A DNA stretch of 6,614 nucleotides from a virus (UHGV-1349127); one strand, 5' to 3'; positions 1 to 6,614 are shown, counted from the first letter of the stretch. The notes: generated by a model from the sequence alone, not told the origin. Program-made: numbers and translations.

Positions 1-606
1 AGACCAAGCCTGATGAACAACCTGATACACATCCATAGAAGACATATGAATAGGCATATTCCACAAAATAAGATGGTAATGAGGCAGTTTTGTATTACTG
101 CCATATTCAGCGGCGGCAAAATACCGAATTTTCTCATCATAACCATGGTCTCTAATAAGAATTTGACGCAAACGTTTAAGAAAATCTTGTACATGTTTTT
201 TATCTACACCGTCCGCGGGACGGTGTATGGGATTGTAAGTGAGGGTAATAAAATAGGGGACAGAACGGGACGACTGCGTTTCTGCAACAGCTCGAAACAT
301 CCATTCACGGGCGTTCCTCTTTCGACAAAGACCACATTTACGGCATGGAGTTGCCAAGAACATAGGTACGACGTCACCATCGCGGTCAATGGCATAAAAA
401 CTGTCTTGCCATGAAGCAAGGCCTTGAAAATCAATGTTTTTCGGCGAAAACAGGGCATACGGAAAGTTCCAACGCCATGCAGCGAGTTGCATTTCCGGTA
501 CAAAAGTTGCATTTCCATCATAAACATATTTTCCAGTTTGTAAAAGTGCATCCTTAAAAGCAGGATTTAAAATATATTTTGGTTTTTCACAAAGAATATT
601 TGTCAT
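1..606 (-). CDS. Replication initiation protein VP4 (rolling-circle HUH endonuclease), N-terminal 202 codons. Start ATG is the complement of 604-606. The ORF has no stop before window position 1 and appears to continue at 6614 if the molecule is circular.
   Basis: Hand translation of the minus strand gives MTNILCEKPKYILNP...ATPCRKCGLCRKRNAREW...SVPYFITLTYNP...EYGSNTKLPHYHLILWN...QAWS. This carries the microvirus VP4 hallmarks: N-terminal C-x2-P...NP, a CxxC zinc-finger-like PCxKCxxC, RCR motif I (FITLTY) and motif II (PHYHLIL). The start has an A-rich leader (AAAAATAAAAAACTATG). It is absent from the ORF track only because no stop falls inside the window. Confidence 0.85.
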   Translation of the reverse strand, partial: MTNILCEKPKYILNPAFKDALLQTGKYVYDGNATFVPEMQLAAWRWNFPYALFSPKNIDFQGLASWQDSFYAIDRDGDVVPMFLATPCRKCGLCRKRNAREWMFRAVAETQSSRSVPYFITLTYNPIHRPADGVDKKHVQDFLKRLRQILIRDHGYDEKIRYFAAAEYGSNTKLPHYHLILWNMPIHMSSMDVYQVVHQAWS

Positions 607-619
607 AGTTTTTTATTTT

Positions 620-775
620 TAATTTGGGCGTCCGGGCGGGCTATCCGCTCAAACAAATCGGCTTCGCCGATACTCGCTCCTATCCCTGACGCGCTTCACT
701 TCGTTACGCTATGCATTCCGGCGTCATCCGAGATGACAGAGCGGTGTTCGCGCTCCCGCGCTCACGAATTTCATA
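620..775. other. GC-rich structured island (~59 % GC against ~40 % for the genome) immediately upstream of the Rep start.
   Basis: Counted 88 G+C in the 150 nt at 621-770. It contains several short GC hairpins: ATCGGC-TTC-GCCGAT (657-671), GTCATC-CGA-GATGAC (723-737), and GAGCG-GTGTTCG-CGCTC (739-755). A 16-codon minus-strand uORF (MKFVSAGARTPLCHLG, 774->724) starts in the same AATTATG context used by three genes. Confidence 0.5.
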
Positions 776-800
776 ATTTCCTTTTATCTCTCAAGATGTG

Positions 801-808
801 CAAAGATA
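801..808 (-). promoter_or_regulatory. Weak candidate -7 promoter element TATCTTTG (TAnnTTTG) on minus strand, upstream of the GC-rich island and Rep.
   Basis: It matches the Bacteroidetes -7 consensus but has no convincing -33 TTTG at the expected spacing. It would give Rep a ~190-nt structured leader. Confidence 0.15.
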
Positions 809-844
809 AAGTGTAGGCTAAAATATCGTTTATCAACCTGAGCC

Positions 845-884
845 AAACTATGTTAAAGTCGCTGCGCTTGGTTTAACATAGTTT
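845..884. repeat. Perfect 13-bp inverted repeat AAACTATGTTAAA / TTTAACATAGTTT separated by a 14-nt GC-rich spacer (GTCGCTGCGCTTGG).
   Basis: Seen directly. Arms are 845-857 and 872-884, with 13/13 complementarity. Stems are AT-rich and the loop is GC-rich. No U-tract follows on either strand. It is intergenic, ~240 nt upstream of the Rep ATG on the coding strand. Confidence 0.6.
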
Positions 885-984
885 ACCACAGAACGCCAAA
901 CGCTATTTTTTCCTACGCATTGTTTTATTGCACGTCTCGAAAGAAAAAAGGAAAAATATGCTTTGATGTTTGCGATAGATAAGA

Positions 985-1025
985 GACAGAAAGAATAAGA
1001 ACGCAAACCGAAGTTGGGAACTTCG
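985..1025 (-). terminator. Candidate intrinsic terminator: hairpin CGAAGTT-CCC-AACTTCG (1025->1009 on minus), followed on minus by the U-rich GTTTGCGTTCTTATTCTTTCTGTCTCTT.
   Basis: A 7-bp perfect stem with a 3-nt loop is followed immediately on the coding strand by a T/pyrimidine-rich run. It lies downstream of the VP1-VP2-93aa block and upstream of the Rep regulatory region. Stem GC content is modest. Confidence 0.3.
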
Positions 1026-1059
1026 TAGGGCCGTAGCCTTATAACAGTTATTGGACAAG

Positions 1060-1076
1060 GGAGCGCAAGGCGCTCC
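1060..1076 (-). other. GC-rich hairpin GGAGCGC-AAG-GCGCTCC (7-bp stem, 3-nt loop).
   Basis: Perfect inverted repeat seen directly. It lies ~60 nt downstream (minus strand) of the 93-aa ORF stop. No U-tract follows immediately, so it is not a canonical terminator on its own. Confidence 0.5.
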
Positions 1077-1117
1077 ACATTCAGATCTATTCACACAAGC
1101 TGAGCAATGTGTCAGTT

Positions 1118-1137
1118 GTGCTAAATATATCAAGTTA
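1118..1137 (-). promoter_or_regulatory. Candidate Rep nick site / viral-strand origin. The minus strand reads TAACTTGATATATTTAGCAC.
   Basis: Compared with the phiX174 origin CAACTTG^ATATTAATAACAC it matches 15 of 20 positions. A contiguous 10-mer AACTTGATAT spans the phiX nick position (G^A). It occurs once in the window, on the coding (virion-sense) strand as in phiX174. It sits at the head of the long intergenic region. Confidence 0.35.
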
Positions 1138-1416
1138 GACAATGCTGGATGTTTCACCCAGTCCACAAGTTAACTGACAAAAGTCAGTGTAAGAGAATAC
1201 TGCACGAGTTGTGCGGCCACAGTATGCTGCATCGATAATGCCTACAAATAGATATGTAGATCGATATGTTTGCTGCATATGATCCGTAAAAGATACAGCT
1301 CTATCCGCTATTTCTAAACCTAAAGCATGATAAGTTGTATTACAAGGTATATCTGTAACTTTTATATACTCTTGTTTCTGCTTCCTAATGTTTAAATACT
1401 GTAAAAGAATGTCCAT
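1135..1416 (-). CDS. Hypothetical protein, 93 aa, downstream of VP2 (positional analogue of gokushovirus VP3).
   Basis: ATG start in the same AATTATG context as the VP1 and 103-aa starts. A sigma(ABfr)-like promoter match precedes it. Non-repetitive sequence with 4 Cys. No recognisable family. Its stop codon is embedded in the phiX174-ori-like motif. Confidence 0.35.
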   Translation of the reverse strand: MDILLQYLNIRKQKQEYIKVTDIPCNTTYHALGLEIADRAVSFTDHMQQTYRSTYLFVGIIDAAYCGRTTRAVFSYTDFCQLTCGLGETSSIV

Positions 1417-1462
1417 AATTGTAATGTTTTAAAGGTTAATAATTTTGTTTCTTTCAACACTA

Positions 1463-1494
1463 CAAAAATAGACATTCTTTGGGTATTCGCCAAA
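1463..1494 (-). promoter_or_regulatory. Candidate Bacteroidetes-type promoter. The -33 TTTG is the complement of 1491-1494. The -7 TATTTTTG is the complement of 1463-1470. Spacer is 20 nt.
   Basis: Minus-strand sequence reads ...CATTTGGCGAATACCCAAAGAATGTCTATTTTTGTAGTG... This fits the Bacteroides consensus (-33 TTTG, 19-21 nt spacer, -7 TAnnTTTG). It lies in the VP2 to 93-aa-ORF gap, ~45 nt upstream of the ATG at 1416. AT-rich DNA can produce such matches by chance. Confidence 0.3.
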
Positions 1495-1507
1495 TGTTTT
1501 GTATTAA

Positions 1508-2626
1508 TTAATCATAATAATCATACTCAACATATTTCCGAGTTCTATCTCTAGAAGTTGTCTCCTTACGCGTTTTAGGTTTACCGGAGTTACTTGCACG
1601 AGGGTTCGCAAAGGGAATGAAGGATGCAATGTCGCCTAAAATAGCATGAATCTGATTCATGGTACGTTCAAAATCATCCCAATTCATATCCTGCATAAGA
1701 TCGAAGCGGAGGCGGTCCGCTTCTGCGCTTACCTTATAGCCTAGGTCTTGATAGAATGAAGATATAGCCTGATTTCGTTTTTCCTCGGACTTCATAAGAG
1801 GCAATTTACCTGCAAGTTCTTGGAAAGCAATCTTTAGTTGTCCTTCAGACACTTTTAATTGACCTTGCATAACTTCAAGTTTGCCATGTTCAATAAAAGA
1901 ATCCAAAGCAACACGAACATGACGTTCCCAAATACGAGAATCAACGTCAGCAGCTTGAGAAATCAAAAGGTCAATTTCAGAATCTATCTTACTGATATTA
2001 GCATTGATCTGTTCAATCATACTACGAGCCTGTGAAGCCTGAGCATCATTAAGTTTAATTTTACTACCATTAACAAGAATAGTACTCTCCATAGTATCAA
2101 GCTGGCCTTGATTAAATGCGTCACGGAACGAAGCATCAGAGGCAAGAATGTCATTAGTATGTTTCTGACCTTCTGTTTCGGCAGTAGTCTTACCAACCTG
2201 GGCAGAAAGGGCAGTGTCAGCAAGAGCTTGAGAAGCAACACTTCCGAGAGGTTCATATCTATTCCATGCAGAAGTATCAGCAACAGGACCAGATGGAGTA
2301 TGTCCACCTTGTGCCTGAATAGAAGAACCTTGCAAAGATCCATTAGTAGAATATAAATCCGGATTAATGCCAGCAGCTTTCAAACGAGCTTGGACAGCAG
2401 CAGGAGTATTATACTCATTATTAGCCTGCCAAAGCTTGTAATTCCAATCATTCTGTGCTTCACGTTCAGAGGTTTGCCATTTACGAGTTTTCTCAGCTTC
2501 TTCACGCGCCGCCGCGAGCTGTTTTTCAACAGACTGATTCTGAGAACTAGCACCGAATAAATTAGAAATGCCGGAAAGTGCGCCACCAATGAGCGCACTA
2601 CCAGCACCTTGAAAGAATTTTCCCAT
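1508..2626 (-). CDS. Minor capsid / DNA pilot protein VP2, 372 aa.
   Basis: It sits immediately downstream of VP1, as in gokushovirus/alpavirus genomes. The N-terminus is Gly/Ala/Ser-rich (MGKFFQGAGSALIGGALSGISNLFGASSQ). This is followed by ...EKTRKWQTSEREAQNDWNYKLWQANNEYNTPAAVQARLKAAGINPDLY, which resembles the conserved VP2 segment (R-x-WQE-x-MSNTAYQR-x-V-x-DLK-x-AGLNP). The central region is a long Q/S/A-rich predicted coiled coil. Confidence 0.75.
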   Translation of the reverse strand: MGKFFQGAGSALIGGALSGISNLFGASSQNQSVEKQLAAAREEAEKTRKWQTSEREAQNDWNYKLWQANNEYNTPAAVQARLKAAGINPDLYSTNGSLQGSSIQAQGGHTPSGPVADTSAWNRYEPLGSVASQALADTALSAQVGKTTAETEGQKHTNDILASDASFRDAFNQGQLDTMESTILVNGSKIKLNDAQASQARSMIEQINANISKIDSEIDLLISQAADVDSRIWERHVRVALDSFIEHGKLEVMQGQLKVSEGQLKIAFQELAGKLPLMKSEEKRNQAISSFYQDLGYKVSAEADRLRFDLMQDMNWDDFERTMNQIHAILGDIASFIPFANPRASNSGKPKTRKETTSRDRTRKYVEYDYYD

Positions 2627-2937
2627 TATTGTAACTGCTTACGCTTTTCATTGTAGGCGGCTACAATCTTAGCGCGGGCATCACGTTGAGCATTCCAAAT
2701 ATCAGCAATATCCTGACCTCGACGATATTCAACAGGAACAATCCAAGACTCTTCATCCGTAAAGTCATTAGCGGGTAACTGTGAAATATTCTGAGAAGAA
2801 ATAGGTACACCAGCTTTAGCAGCTTCATACATTTGGGCGGGAGTGTAGGCAAGGTCACCACGTACGGGAAGTTCACCCGGCTTCCGAGTACATGTACACG
2901 TGTGTGTGTTCCAAGCATGAATTACAACTTGTTTCAT
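2626..2937 (-). CDS. Hypothetical protein, 103 aa, between VP1 and VP2.
   Basis: ATG lies 2 nt after the VP1 stop (TAATTATG). Its TAA stop overlaps the VP2 ATG by one base (TAATG). It fills the VP1-VP2 gap exactly with non-repetitive composition and a mixed-charge C-terminal tail (RDARAKIVAAYNEKRKQLQ). No recognisable family. Confidence 0.55.
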   Translation of the reverse strand: MKQVVIHAWNTHTCTCTRKPGELPVRGDLAYTPAQMYEAAKAGVPISSQNISQLPANDFTDEESWIVPVEYRRGQDIADIWNAQRDARAKIVAAYNEKRKQLQ

Positions 2938-2939
2938 AA

Positions 2940-5207
2940 TTATTCAATATGAGGTATAGAGTTACGAGGAATAGTAGTTTTCTTAGTAATATCAAAAGCA
3001 ATACTACCTAAAATCTTATCGCCATTTTCGGAAGTCATAGCAAATACATCATTAACATGATCGGGGTTCACAAGTAAGAAATCATTTGATAGTTCAGGAG
3101 CTTTATCGAATACACGATTGATAAGGAAGTTTCTCATAGAACCACGGAATTCACCATGTACTTCATCAAACGAAGCAATCAGATCCCAATATGCGCGCTG
3201 ATAACCAAATACATTATCAACGTGCTGAGGATTCACAGCATAGGCCTGATACGGACATAAGTGCTTATAAAGCATAGGTTGATAACTTATGTTATTGAAT
3301 TGTGGGAAATGCCAATCCAAAAGGTTCATGCGTGTGAAATGAGGAGGTAACAACTGTGAATAATTCGCAGCAGGTACAACAGACATAACACCAAGTATAT
3401 AACCGTCTTCCGGACAATACTTACGAATAACATGTCGCATACCAGACTGTAGAGAACCTTGGCCAGCAAAACTACCTAACGGATTACCCTCGGTAGGCGT
3501 AGTTTGAGTTACCTTATATACAGGGATAGTATCAGAAATACCACCAAGAAACTCAGGCATCATAAGTTCATCATAATCCAAATCAACATTAAAAAGACCT
3601 TTTGCAAGATTCTTATAACGCGGGGATTGACGAACGCGAATCTCAAGGAAACGCTGGAGTGAGTTAACGTTACGAATATCCGAGATAGATACACCAGAAG
3701 TAGCCATACCTATAAGATTTCGAACGACATCAGAAGGAGCATTAGAACTCTTAACTTGGAAACCTGTAACAGTATCTCCATCTTCGGCAGTCTCAAGTTG
3801 AGCATGATATTCAGTTCCAGCAGCATCACGGAATGTAGCTTCACCAAGAGAAGTAATACCTACGAGAGGAGCAATACCGGCTTGAGGAGACTGTAAGGCA
3901 GTAGTATAAGCGTCAGGCTCCCAATTAGCATAATGTAACTGATATTTATAAGTATCTCTACCACCTTTTACAGAAGGTACATAACGATTATATTCAGGTT
4001 TACCGTCTACAATAAACGGGTTATTACGAATATCACGACCAAAAGCATTGTAATATGCTTCGTATGCACGGAAAGGCAAAGCAGACAACGGAATAGCAGG
4101 AAGCTTGTCGGTAGCAGCGGTATAAAATGGACAGTTCGGGCCCGTGGGTTTCGTCCATTCAAAAGACCGATAAATAACAGAGATAGGAGAAGCATAGAGT
4201 TGAGAAATAAACTCTTGTGTAAGGCCTGCACGAATAGTTGTTGTAGAACCAAGTTCGTACAAAGAGTACATGTAAGGTTTCTGATAAAGTTCATTACGAA
4301 ACTCGAAGACCATGCACAGCTTAAAAGAAGTAAGACTCTTGCCTAAATCAACATTGAAAGTAAGGGTATCACCTTTTATATCAATCTCATTAAACTGAGC
4401 TGACCAAATCTTAGGAGCATTCTCATTTTCATAAATAGTAAAACCGACAATAGGCTTACTATCATAATCAGAAATCATTTGGCGTAAAAGAGCAAACCGA
4501 GTCAACGGAATTTGTAGAGTAACATTTTGTGTAGGCGTGTCATAACGAACACTGTAAGGAATAGCCATACAACGAGGCGCAGCGTAACCGTAAGAGCCTG
4601 TATTTGCAAAGTCCTGTACAAAAACATCTCTGAAATTAGCAGTAGAATTAAGAACGGTACTCAAAGTAGTAAAAGCAACACCACTTGTAACCGGAGAACC
4701 GACCAAAGGAGCTTTCAAGGCAGGTACATCAGACTTAAAATTGAACAAATCAGCAGTACGAGCAGCGATAACAGAACCGCCATAAGTACCAGTAATTGTC
4801 GTTGGTACACCAAGGTAATCAGCAAGAGTACCGGTTTGTAAGTCATCATCAACATTAAATTGTTTATGACCTTGCACAGTATCTTCAGCAGTAGGGTCCA
4901 TCCATGGAGGAGTCACAGTTTCATCTCCACCGAAGAAAGACATCCAATCTTCCCAAAGAGTACGAGTGCGGACATAAACAAAATGTAACCGTGCATAGAG
5001 TTGAGTCTGTATCGGGAATACAGTCGGAAGGAGTTGGAGATTAAAGCGCGCACTTATCTGAAATGAGTCACCAAACGATACCGGAAGCAAACACACGGGA
5101 GTAATAGCTCCGAACTTCATTGTAAGGTTATTCACAAACGAAAGGTCAAACGTAGAACGATTAACACGATCTACATATGCGTCTTTTTTACGAAATACAT
5201 TAGCCAT
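2940..5207 (-). CDS. Major capsid protein VP1 (Microviridae F-protein family), 755 aa.
   Basis: The N-terminal region MANVFRKKDAYVDRVNRSTFDLSFVNNLTMKFGAITPVCLLPVSFGDSFQISARFNLQLLPTVFPIQTQLYARLHFVYVRTRTLWEDWMSFFGG matches the conserved gokushovirus/alpavirus VP1 N-terminus (R-S-x-FDLS...G-x-L-x-P...V-x-PGDSF...R...P...P...L...FVP-R-LW-NW-x-F). It is the longest ORF in the window. Size 755 aa fits the Alpavirinae-type VP1 range (650-780 aa). ATG start with an A/T-rich leader. Confidence 0.93.
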   Translation of the reverse strand: MANVFRKKDAYVDRVNRSTFDLSFVNNLTMKFGAITPVCLLPVSFGDSFQISARFNLQLLPTVFPIQTQLYARLHFVYVRTRTLWEDWMSFFGGDETVTPPWMDPTAEDTVQGHKQFNVDDDLQTGTLADYLGVPTTITGTYGGSVIAARTADLFNFKSDVPALKAPLVGSPVTSGVAFTTLSTVLNSTANFRDVFVQDFANTGSYGYAAPRCMAIPYSVRYDTPTQNVTLQIPLTRFALLRQMISDYDSKPIVGFTIYENENAPKIWSAQFNEIDIKGDTLTFNVDLGKSLTSFKLCMVFEFRNELYQKPYMYSLYELGSTTTIRAGLTQEFISQLYASPISVIYRSFEWTKPTGPNCPFYTAATDKLPAIPLSALPFRAYEAYYNAFGRDIRNNPFIVDGKPEYNRYVPSVKGGRDTYKYQLHYANWEPDAYTTALQSPQAGIAPLVGITSLGEATFRDAAGTEYHAQLETAEDGDTVTGFQVKSSNAPSDVVRNLIGMATSGVSISDIRNVNSLQRFLEIRVRQSPRYKNLAKGLFNVDLDYDELMMPEFLGGISDTIPVYKVTQTTPTEGNPLGSFAGQGSLQSGMRHVIRKYCPEDGYILGVMSVVPAANYSQLLPPHFTRMNLLDWHFPQFNNISYQPMLYKHLCPYQAYAVNPQHVDNVFGYQRAYWDLIASFDEVHGEFRGSMRNFLINRVFDKAPELSNDFLLVNPDHVNDVFAMTSENGDKILGSIAFDITKKTTIPRNSIPHIE

Positions 5208-5209
5208 AA

Positions 5210-5410
5210 TTAAAATTTTACATTAATATCAGAAGTTTTCAAAGTATCCACACGCGTAGTAGTAGACTGTTGCGTGCCTTGAGAAGAATTCTGGTTTTTC
5301 CAGAATAAGGACATAGATGCTGTGCAACTATCCAAAAGAATAGCCGCGGCTACTCCCAAAATGAAAGTAGTCGCGTGCTCAATGATTTTATAAATCTGCT
5401 GTTTAGTCAT
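5210..5410 (-). CDS. Small membrane or secreted protein, 66 aa from ATG at 5410. The ORF track's 70-aa version starts at a TTG at 5422. Sequence: MTKQQIYKIIEHATTFILGVAAAILLDSCTASMSLFWKNQNSSQGTQQSTTTRVDTLKTSDINVKF.
   Basis: N-terminus has a basic n-region (MTKQQIYKIIEH), then a ~16-residue hydrophobic core (ATTFILGVAAAILLDS) followed directly by Cys, then a polar S/T/Q-rich tail. This is a signal-peptide or lipoprotein-like (L-D-S-C) or N-terminal anchor architecture. Its start overlaps the stop of the upstream 74-aa ORF (ATGACTAA). Its stop is 2 nt before the VP1 ATG (TAATTATG). Confidence 0.4.
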   Translation of the reverse strand: MTKQQIYKIIEHATTFILGVAAAILLDSCTASMSLFWKNQNSSQGTQQSTTTRVDTLKTSDINVKF

Positions 5411-5627
5411 CTTCCGGTTCAATTAGATACTGTTCATACATACCATCAGGAAGCTGGCGATCGGTAACAATCAACTGCATAGCAGCAGAGAGAGGAATGT
5501 GTTCACGAACTGTAACAACAGTCGGCATCTCTTCCTGAGCAGACAGGAATTTGCGAGTTGTAAAAGTAACACGGGGTTCATTGTCTTGTGCTGTAACCGA
5601 ACAGCAATCTACATTTAATTTTACCAT
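5403..5627 (-). CDS. Hypothetical small acidic protein, 74 aa. C-terminus is EPEDD.
   Basis: ATG start. Its stop overlaps the start of the next ORF (ATGACTAA, overlapping ATG and TAA in different frames), which implies translational coupling. It occupies the position of gokushovirus small proteins (VP5/VP8/VP3) between Rep and VP1. No recognisable motifs. Confidence 0.4.
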   Translation of the reverse strand: MVKLNVDCCSVTAQDNEPRVTFTTRKFLSAQEEMPTVVTVREHIPLSAAMQLIVTDRQLPDGMYEQYLIEPEDD

Positions 5628-5640
5628 AACGTAAAAGTTT

Positions 5641-5820
5641 TTAAGTGAAACAAAAATTATTAGAAAGGACTATCAGGTAATCATCCTGCATAAGTCCGGG
5701 TAATTCAAAATTCACAAATAAGATGTAATCATCAAGAGTTTCAAAAGTACGATAAGAAATCTTATCCTTTTCGTAGTTTAACATCACCTTCGGATATATC
5801 TTAGCATAAATGTACGGCAT
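5641..5820 (-). CDS. Hypothetical small protein, 59 aa: MPYIYAKIYPKVMLNYEKDKISYRTFETLDDYILFVNFELPGLMQDDYLIVLSNNFCFT. Below the ORF-track size cutoff.
   Basis: ATG (complement of 5818-5820) lies 2 nt after the Rep stop (TAACTATG). The ORF fills the gap between Rep and the 74-aa ORF, ending 11 nt before that ORF's ATG. Composition is non-repetitive. No recognisable family. Confidence 0.3.
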   Translation of the reverse strand: MPYIYAKIYPKVMLNYEKDKISYRTFETLDDYILFVNFELPGLMQDDYLIVLSNNFCFT

Positions 5821-5822
5821 AG

Positions 5823-6614
5823 TTACAAAGTTTCTTTATAAATAGCAAGAATATTCTCGTTATCTGTTTTATATTTAACATACGTTATATCAATCTCGGG
5901 TAGCGTTGACATATATTCACTCATGAACTCGTGATGTTCACGCTTAGCAGAAGTCATCATTTTGTAATATTCGAGATCAAACTCATAAGCGTCAAGCATA
6001 GCTAAAAGAGGTTCAAGAATATGTTCCATGACGATAAGACTATCTTCCTGATGAATAGCATAAAAGTTTTTCGCGTTATCAAAGATAAAACGAGGGAAAC
6101 GTTCTACGCAAGTGTCAAAATTGTAGAAAGGATACTTGTCTCGAAGGCGTTTACGAGTCACATTAACTTCTTTATCAGGCATATGAAGATGTATCTGCCA
6201 GAGACAGGCACGAAGTGACAAAAAGTAATCGGCAAGCTGAATAGTATCGCGTATCTCTTTCCGAATAAGCATAGAGGGGGTCGGATAAAGTTTTCGACGG
6301 AAATATGCAGGAATATACGAGGTAAAACGTTCACCTGTAAACTTATCAACGATTTCAACGGTCAAAACGTCAGGATTCTGATAGAACCACATAACATGGT
6401 CGAGACACCATTTATAACCAAGACCGCCGCCACGGCGGGAGGATAAGTAAAAGGTTGGTTTAGAACCTTTAGGAACATCACTTTCTTTACGCATATATTT
6501 CATACAATACTGAATACCACCTTGAGTACAGGGTTTACAATAGACAAAACCAAGTTCACCTATATAATCCCAATCAAAGCGATGAGCAAGTTTGTTATAA
6601 ACTCGTTTTCGAAC
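5823..6614 (-). CDS. Replication initiation protein VP4, C-terminal 263 codons (37 codons from 6614 to 6504, then the 226-aa track ORF). Contains RCR motif III. Stop TAA is the complement of 5823-5825.
   Basis: Minus-strand reading from 6614 has no stop: VRKRVYNKLAHRFDWDYIGELGFVYCKPCTQGGIQYCMKYMRKESDVPKGSKPTFYLSSRRGGGLGYKW... The YCMKYMRK segment matches the Microviridae Rep active-site motif III (Y-x-x-K-Y-x-x-K, compare phiX174 A FYVAKYVNK). The following FxxSRRxGxG also resembles the conserved post-motif-III segment. The frame is exactly contiguous with the Rep N-terminal part ending at position 1 (606 and 111 are both multiples of 3). Spacing from motif II to motif III across the junction is ~47 aa, as in known VP4 proteins. 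The M at 6503 in the ORF track is an internal methionine inside motif III. Confidence 0.8.
   Translation of the reverse strand, partial: VRKRVYNKLAHRFDWDYIGELGFVYCKPCTQGGIQYCMKYMRKESDVPKGSKPTFYLSSRRGGGLGYKWCLDHVMWFYQNPDVLTVEIVDKFTGERFTSYIPAYFRRKLYPTPSMLIRKEIRDTIQLADYFLSLRACLWQIHLHMPDKEVNVTRKRLRDKYPFYNFDTCVERFPRFIFDNAKNFYAIHQEDSLIVMEHILEPLLAMLDAYEFDLEYYKMMTSAKREHHEFMSEYMSTLPEIDITYVKYKTDNENILAIYKETL

Follow-up and report, generated by a model that had tools for sequence, protein, structure and literature searches.

A 6,614-nt microvirus sequence is very probably a complete circular gut phage genome opened inside its replication gene, with candidate replication origins in a conserved non-coding region

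The 6,614-nt viral sequence UHGV-1349127 (hereafter the window, meaning the whole stretch of DNA that was analysed) carries a piece of a gene for a rolling-circle replication initiator (Rep, VP4) at each of its two ends. This raises the question of whether the window is a complete circular genome that was cut within the Rep gene, a product of faulty assembly, or a phage that had been excised from a bacterial chromosome. Our analysis indicates that the window, read as its reverse complement, is very probably the whole circular genome of a gut microvirus (Microviridae), which the assembler linearised between Rep codons 202 and 203. Proposals about the clade, the host and the replication origins of the virus form part of this explanation and are put forward below at different strengths.

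The listing of open reading frames (ORFs) showed that every substantial ORF is encoded on the window's minus strand. The ORF at the left edge starts with an ATG at position 606 and remains open to base 1, comprising 202 codons. The ORF running from 6614 to 5823 is open at the right edge and contains 263 codons and a stop codon. When the two are joined, they form a single frameshift-free Rep ORF of 465 amino acids (aa). Motif I (FITLTY, residue 119) and motif II (HYHLILW, residue 176) are located to the left of the join at residues 202/203, and motif III (YCMKYMRK, residue 238), which includes two tyrosines at positions 238 and 242, is located to the right of it. The first-pass annotation, made from the sequence without database searches, had assigned motifs I and II to the left-edge ORF and motif III to the right-edge ORF and had interpreted the two as one uninterrupted 465-codon gene of a circular microvirus genome. 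This interpretation held in every respect but the spacing of motifs II and III, which had been given as about 47 residues and measures 55 residues between the motifs, or 62 residues from H176 to Y238.

The joined Rep behaves as one protein in comparisons with its homologues, as had been anticipated. Residues 118–246 match the Pfam family PF23343 (REP_ORF2-G2P) as one stretch that extends over the join (E 2.8e-18, 66 bits against a cut-off of 27.8), and residues 46–360 match phrog_942, a family of replication initiation proteins (E 3e-56). The alignment of the joined Rep with the VP4 protein of SH-CHD12 (KX513875, 466 aa) and the Rep of Dulem virus 258 (PP511798, 464 aa) is collinear and free of gaps at the join, where the window reads QAWS/VRKRVYN (the slash marks the join) and the aligned GenBank proteins read DAWSIKQRVYN. 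Among the fetched relatives, 31 distinct loci contain the Rep gene. In 28 of them, the full-length protein was recovered by tblastn as a single high-scoring segment pair (HSP) covering residues 1–465, or residues 3/4–465 in three cases, and the remaining three loci belong to contigs that start or stop within the gene. A relative of Rep with a solved structure was not detectable by sequence search.

The same circle is present in independent assemblies. Two SPAdes contigs from different samples in the European Nucleotide Archive (ENA), NODE_23 of ERZ807458 and NODE_36 of ERZ807440, are each 6,669 nt long, with coverages of 658x and 523x, respectively, and have terminal overlaps of 55 nt. Once the overlaps are trimmed, each contig forms a circle of 6,614 nt, with three and one substitutions, respectively, relative to the window (99.95–100% identity). 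Both contigs were opened at other points than the window, encode an intact 465-aa Rep, and contain window bases 6614 and 1 as internal neighbours, so that the inspection of contig ends proposed in the first-pass annotation speaks for circularity. The 40-mer spanning the junction is also present, without any mismatch, in an IMG/VR circle that is 85% identical to the window and has a direct terminal repeat of 89 nt. Because the Rep gene closes in frame and the same circle occurs in independent assemblies that were opened elsewhere, we consider the window to be a complete circle opened inside Rep. Four public contigs of relatives (L008, L040, L041 and L042; 8.9–18.8 kb) consist of genome copies repeated head to tail every 6.6 kb or so and lack bacterial genes. 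These concatemers are assembly products of mixed strains of a circular genome. Concatemeric contigs sometimes hold variant copies, as in the case of one contig that encodes VP1 proteins of 758 and 736 aa.

The genome possesses characteristics of Microviridae, namely a small circular genome of about 4–7 kb, a superfamily I HUH rolling-circle initiator with motifs I–III and two tyrosines in motif III, an F-type (Phage_F) major capsid protein, and a DNA pilot protein (VP2/H). Along the coding strand, Rep is followed by the ORFs of 59, 74 and 66 aa, VP1, the 103-aa ORF, VP2, the 93-aa ORF, and approximately 530 nt of non-coding DNA that lead back to Rep (Table 1). The order of VP4, small ORFs, VP1, VP2 and small ORF in the first-pass annotation was thus borne out, with the exception that the conserved 103-aa gene between VP1 and VP2 had been omitted. 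The VP1 length and the GC content of about 40% reported there were also correct, as the genome contains 39.9% GC. No tRNA genes were found in the window.

Table 1 Positions of genes and non-coding elements in the window
Feature	Position	Strand	Remarks
Rep (VP4) codons 1-202	1..606	-	N-terminal Cys-rich segment; HUH motifs I FITLTY and II HYHLILW
Rep (VP4) codons 203-465 and stop	5823..6614	-	motif III YCMKYMRK; C-terminal domain
59-aa ORF	5641..5820	-	40-42% aa identity, same slot in KX513875 and PP511798; called in relatives
74-aa ORF	5403..5627	-	57-62% aa identity in KX513875 and PP511798
66-aa ORF	5210..5410	-	ATG start, extendable to TTG at 5422; 66-69% aa identity in KX513875 and PP511798
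VP1 major capsid protein, 755 aa	2940..5207	-	PF02305, phrog_514, PDB 8des_A
103-aa ORF after VP1	2626..2937	-	35-76% aa identity, same slot in 8 genomes
VP2 DNA pilot protein, 372 aa	1508..2626	-	phrog_8689, phrog_31272
93-aa ORF, fast-evolving accessory gene	1135..1416	-	aligned without stops in relatives
Hairpin B, VP2 stop to 93-aa ORF start	1401..1487	-	holds TATTTTTG (1463-1470); inverted repeat I3
Conserved 86-nt block with candidate plus-strand origin	1080..1165	-	TAACTTGATA 1137->1128, AACTGACACA 1117->1108
Stem-loop, 7 bp, GGAGCGC CTT GCGCTCC	1060..1076	-	just downstream of the origin-like block; z -4.8
Second short stem-loop CGAAGTT CCC AACTTCG, then GTTTGCGTTC	1009..1025	-	z -2.4
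Hairpin A, 74-bp imperfect long hairpin	772..960	-	3' arm holds TATCTTTG (801-808)
GC-rich segment	607..771	-	adjoins the Rep ATG upstream

VP1 was identified by its matches to PF02305 (E 2.1e-48, 165.8 bits against a cut-off of 25) and phrog_514 (E 3e-101), and the solved capsids closest to it are 8des (8des_A, E 2.9e-24) and 9cgm (E 1.2e-15). Residues ~108–372 of VP1 (window ~4091–4885) are hypervariable and share no nucleotide HSP with the 85%-identical relative L003. The large size of VP1 is due to this hypervariable insert, which presumably forms a surface protrusion that sets the host range. VP2 matches phrog_8689 (E 1.5e-11) and phrog_31272 (E 6.9e-11), and shares 61–62% identity with the proteins annotated as pilot proteins in PP511798 and KX513875. 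The 103-aa ORF has no Pfam or PHROG match. Its position corresponds to that of the VP3-like ORF proposed for Bacteroidetes proviruses (PMC3091885), and its product is by this position a candidate internal scaffolding (VP3-like) protein.

The 66-aa ORF contains a hydrophobic segment, FILGVAAAILLDSC, and could encode a membrane or lysis protein. Distant members of the clade (L043–L048), with VP1 proteins 37–40% identical to that of the window, encode a peptidase between Rep and VP1. The window has the three small ORFs in this slot, which suggests a different lysis strategy. The 93-aa ORF was found nearly full length (residues 1 to 88–93) and stop-free in 29 of 33 loci of relatives, a count that includes two re-fetches of the same contigs, at amino acid identities of 37–86%. 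Therefore, it is a real but fast-evolving gene, and its nucleotide identity among relatives is 55–70%. It is missing in L014, L020 and L030, is represented by an 18-aa match only in L034, and is absent from KX513875, PP511798 and the distant relatives. Thus distributed, it looks like a hypervariable accessory gene. The identities of Rep and VP1 are discordant among relatives, since the Rep of L018 is 96.6% identical to that of the window but its VP1 only 70%, and the VP1 of L030 is 93% identical (residues 350–755 only) but its Rep 79.6%. The discordance indicates an exchange of modules between lineages, possibly via the conserved non-coding region described below.

The first-pass annotation had placed the window among Alpavirinae-like phages and had proposed to verify this by VP1 phylogeny. 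The NCBI taxonomy has no entry for 'Alpavirinae'. In the scheme of Kirchberger et al. (PMC9239249), the name corresponds to Family 5, and families are protein clusters above 30% amino acid identity. We compared the window VP1 with genomes of Families 3, 5, 10, 11, 12, 13, 16, 18 and 19, as labelled in Tables S1 and S2 of that study, whereas Families 4, 6, 8, 9, 15 and 17 were left out. The identity to MG945397, the sole labelled Family 5 genome compared, is 23.7% over 232 aa (53 bits), which is below the 30% threshold, and the identity to phiHBP1, a cultured phage of Bacteroides fragilis, is 19%. The VP1 of phiHBP1 is 31–38% identical to that of MG945397, and the two cluster together. A search with the phiHBP1 VP1 for the capsids of named Bacteroides proviruses returned only metagenome relatives. 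Identities to Families 10, 11, 12, 13, 16, 18 and 19 are 22–30% over partial alignments with at most 87 bits, too low for assignment to any of them. The window does not belong to Gokushovirinae (Family 3) either, as its VP1 is 26% identical over 394 aa to that of phiMH2K, its small ORFs have no phiMH2K matches, and its length is 6.6 kb, compared with about 4.5–5 kb in that group.

Because the VP1 identities to the labelled Family 5 genome and to phiHBP1 are below 30%, the window does not belong to Alpavirinae in the strict sense. Judged by these sequence comparisons, it is part of a separate family-level gut clade together with SH-CHD12, Dulem 258, MG945169, MG945493, MG945433, OM869666, OM869684 and MZ089798. 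The window does have the architecture described for Alpavirinae (PMC3091885, PMC3394797), with only VP1, VP2 and VP4 recognisable, a small ORF after VP1, Rep located upstream, and a genome longer than 6 kb. However, this architecture is not diagnostic, because it is common to several other gut microvirus families. Roux et al. (PMC3394797) applied 'Alpavirinae' more broadly, and some of the genomes included there are now in Families 4 and 15. The term 'Alpavirinae-like' is thus defensible for gene content and order only, and the assignment is better replaced by that of a family-level gut clade, probably infecting Bacteroidota.

A megablast search of GenBank phages with the whole window gave two partial matches only. 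An exact look-up of the window VP1 found no match, and the near-identical contigs were reached via the 100%-rounded cluster P0001. The closest complete GenBank genomes, KX513875 and PP511798, are circular, 6.36–6.39 kb long, and have the same gene order as the window. Their identities to the window are 63–79% for VP1, approximately 61% for VP2, 70–76% for the 103-aa protein, and approximately 51% for Rep. PP511798 has four small ORFs after Rep (70, 59, 76 and 66 aa), three of which match the three of the window. The 93-aa gene, the 74-bp hairpin and the GC-rich segment of the window are all missing from the two genomes, in which the VP2-to-Rep spacer is approximately 460 nt long, compared with 900 nt in the window.

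Comparison with better-known groups shows both likenesses and differences. The window shares with Family 5 (the Bacteroides and Prevotella proviruses BMV1-7, MG945397 and phiHBP1) a genome longer than 6 kb, the position of Rep upstream of VP1, recognisable VP1, VP2 and VP4 only, a small conserved ORF after VP1, two tyrosines in motif III, and an association with Bacteroidota. However, the similarity of the Rep proteins is confined to about 46 aa around motif II, and the window lacks a peptidase, a dif-like site and integrated relatives. The C-terminal half of VP1 is homologous to that of Gokushovirinae (phiMH2K; 8des and 9cgm), and the order VP1-VP2-...-VP4 is common to both. In contrast to Gokushovirinae, the window is 6.6 kb rather than 4.6 kb long, its VP1 has 755 rather than ~530–565 residues, and homologues of VP3, VP5 and VP8 were not detected in it by Pfam, PHROG and phiMH2K comparisons. 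The phage phiX174 (Bullavirinae) likewise has an HUH Rep with two catalytic tyrosines, but the window lacks homologues of its external scaffold, spike, J and lysis E proteins.

The most conserved part of the genome is non-coding. Positions 607–1180 of the window (~570 nt) have 85–94% column identity over approximately 27 relatives, which is above that of any coding region, although the same relatives diverge at the protein level by as much as 30% in VP1 and 21% in Rep. Within this region, the block 1080–1165 is 89–90% identical in KX513875 and PP511798, despite the low identity of their Rep proteins to that of the window and an identity of 9–54% in other intergenic DNA. The block carries TAACTTGATA-TATTTAGCAC-AACTGACACA on the minus strand (1137->1108), and the candidate origin words AACTTGATA and AACTGACACA are located within these 30 positions. 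The phiX174 origin, CAACTTGATA-TTAATAACAC-TATAGACCAC (4299–4328; rep_origin annotated at 4306), is likewise built as 10+10+10 and has AACTTGATAT in common with the candidate across the nick position. By analogy, the nick in TAACTTGATA would fall between G1131 and A1130 (AACTTG/ATAT, with the slash at the nick). The candidate origin is intergenic in the window, whereas that of phiX174 is inside the Rep gene. AACTGACAC recurs on the coding strand in the VP2-to-Rep spacers of MG945169, MG945493, OM869684 and MG945433, the VP1 proteins of which are 37–40% identical to that of the window, usually after an ACTTGAYA-like word. Based on its position, strand and conservation, we give the conserved block an even chance of being the plus-strand origin. 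We found no description of origins of microviruses outside the phiX174 group in the literature searched, and the candidates presented here may therefore be the first.

Downstream of the block, the non-coding region contains several potential secondary structures. The DNA fold of the 74-bp imperfect hairpin (Hairpin A) has a predicted energy of -40.5 kcal/mol (z-score -6.0), compared with -36.7 kcal/mol for the other strand. This 3.8 kcal/mol advantage and five invariant G.T pairs favour the coding strand as the one that folds. The hairpin is 93–99% identical in 25 relatives. In an alignment with 22 distinct sequences, 98.6% of cells are paired and five pairs show compensatory changes, in 24 cells, compared with 0–1 pairs in slid controls. 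Hairpins recognised by PriA, primase or RNA polymerase are known from phiX174, G4 and filamentous phages. By analogy with these, Hairpin A may be a signal for priming of the complementary strand, although we put this at somewhat less than an even chance. The idea that positions 607–1180 form a compact two-origin control region, in which the plus-strand nick word AACTTG/ATAT followed by AACTGACACA, shared by the clade and echoing phiX174, is combined with the 74-bp complementary-strand priming hairpin, is a tentative one, and we lean against it.

The 7-bp stem next to the origin-like block has six differing stem sequences among relatives, including SH-CHD12 and Dulem 258, each of them perfectly paired and located at the same place. 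The stretch 1029–962 around the second stem-loop is 81–97% identical in close relatives, and an equivalent of this stem was seen in the folds of KX513875 and PP511798. Hairpin B, between VP2 and the 93-aa ORF, folds with -16.2 kcal/mol (z-score -4.05) and is 85–93% conserved in close relatives. The GC-rich segment at 607–771 folds no better than its shuffles (z-score -0.24). It is partly deleted in L019 and L029, and KX513875 and PP511798 have a different GC-rich stretch at this place. A 16-aa basic peptide with a GTG start in the segment was considered as a J- or VP8-like protein and rejected, as the alignments show conservation of neither the start codon nor the peptide sequence. Searches of Rfam gave only sub-threshold matches of miRNA-precursor shape, which reflect the hairpins.

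Based on the gene content and on the biology of related phages, a life cycle can be proposed. The coding strand of the window contains 33% T and 27% A, and the viral strand of phiX174 is likewise T-rich. By analogy with phiX174 and gokushoviruses, the T-rich coding-sense strand would be the one packaged. As in other Microviridae, a host enzyme would convert the strand that has entered the cell to the double-stranded replicative form, possibly priming at the 74-bp hairpin at 772–960. Rep would then nick the plus strand at the origin, perhaps the block 1080–1165 with TAACTTGATA...AACTGACACA, remain covalently bound through a motif III tyrosine, and drive rolling-circle synthesis. The second motif III tyrosine would close each unit circle, which would be packaged into VP1 procapsids, with the 103-aa protein as the putative internal scaffold. 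Lysis may be brought about by one of the three small proteins encoded where the distant relatives have a peptidase.

Several points weigh against this account of the window or parts of it. The evidence for circularity comes from assemblies, not reads, and a terminal overlap of assembler k-mer length can also come from tandem repeats. The single-stranded state of the DNA and the identity of the packaged strand are suggested by analogy. The other microvirus families examined lack the origin motifs, and the local stem-loop around the candidate origin is no more stable than in shuffles. The candidate matches the phiX174 origin at 19 of 30 positions, a score that is reached by 81 of 300 shuffled genomes (27%) and equalled by a second site in the window. 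The similarity was therefore rejected as statistical evidence, and the origin proposal rests on the other grounds given above. Hairpin A is not present in the folds of KX513875 or PP511798 and is consequently lineage-specific. The promoter word TAnnTTTG is not enriched in the window, with nine copies found against 6.8 expected and at least nine in 46 of 200 shuffles, so the Bacteroidetes-like promoter motifs of the first-pass annotation did not stand up; two of the copies fall in the two intergenic regions. An 81%-identical whole genome, the 6,689-nt contig41 (NZ_QTJV01000041.1) in the assembly of isolate Chitinophaga silvisoli K20C18050901, a soil Bacteroidota, is possibly contamination.

Alternatively, the window could be an assembly artefact, either one unit of a linear tandem array or a chimera of Rep halves from different strains. 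Concatemeric contigs are indeed known among relatives, and strain mixtures and mosaicism are evident, with discordant identities of Rep and VP1. However, two assemblies from different samples contain the same 6,614-nt unit with 1–3 single-nucleotide differences and differing opening points, the join has neither a gap nor a duplication relative to three independent Rep homologues, and concatemers are expected from the assembly of a circular genome that exists in several strain variants. We regard an artefact as extremely improbable. The first-pass annotation had also allowed for an excised prophage, and an integrated or excised temperate element of Bacteroidales that relies on host XerC/D and a dif-like site, the mechanism proposed for BMV1-7, would be in keeping with the discovery of Alpavirinae as integrase-less proviruses flanked by dif-like sites (PMC3091885), with the lack of an integrase among the window proteins in Pfam and PHROG comparisons, and with the long non-coding region upstream of Rep, where the att sites of the proviruses lie. 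Nevertheless, the dif consensus has no match in the window within three mismatches, although this consensus is a bacterial one and the dif of Bacteroidota may differ. No contig exceeds 19 kb among the 120 VP1 clusters closest to the window, and the 13–19 kb contigs of relatives, considered as prophages, were rejected as such, since they belong to the head-to-tail concatemers. The sole match in genome collections is a stand-alone 6.7-kb contig, and the VP1 is distant from the provirus-containing Family 5. The Alpavirinae trait of occurring as a provirus with dif-like att sites in Bacteroides or Prevotella was not observed, and no relative was integrated among the contigs examined. The excised-prophage alternative is thus unsupported and very improbable, and the complete circular microvirus genome remains the preferred explanation.

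The host of this microvirus is probably a member of Bacteroidota. No Shine-Dalgarno core was seen by eye upstream of any of the eight genes, as the first-pass annotation had noted, and the upstream regions are A/T-rich, which fits Bacteroidota. Sigma-70 promoters and intrinsic terminators occur at chance level in the window. The iPHoP host prediction for the relative PP511798 is Bacteroides (98.2) and Phocaeicola (95.7) (PMC11281440, Table S3). The lack of Shine-Dalgarno sequences and this prediction make a host among Bacteroidota plausible, and the Chitinophaga isolate whose assembly contains the 81%-identical genome is also a member of this phylum. The virus could instead infect a host other than gut Bacteroidales, such as Chitinophaga or another member of Bacteroidota, or a bacterium outside this phylum. 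The genome in the Chitinophaga silvisoli assembly points in this direction, as does the VP1 identity of just 19% to the one Bacteroides microvirus in culture, and no CRISPR or prophage link to Bacteroidales was obtained. However, the GenBank relatives come from human or animal faeces, and iPHoP places one of them in Bacteroides and Phocaeicola. In the Chitinophaga contig, a 14-nt end overlap precedes 60 nt that bear no relation to the phage, pointing to a chimera at this end. It is known that contigs of gut-type microviruses turn up in assemblies of unrelated isolates, and Kirchberger et al. (PMC9239249) list such contigs with disagreeing CRISPR-based host predictions, which is why we treat the Chitinophaga contig as possible contamination. 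Therefore, we consider a host other than gut Bacteroidales unlikely.

The genome is that of an ordinary gut microvirus, near-identical copies of which are already present in public ENA assemblies. Since thousands of gut microvirus genomes are public, it matters little by itself. Nevertheless, it provides a clean reference sequence, complete and verified, for a lineage common in the human gut, of which GenBank has only partial coverage at 82% identity or less, and it demonstrates that calling a genome 'Alpavirinae' by its size and gene order can lead to the wrong family. Only the conserved, structured non-coding region merits follow-up. It offers concrete candidates for both replication origins of microviruses outside the phiX174 group, which would be needed for the construction of replicons or for phage engineering in Bacteroidota.

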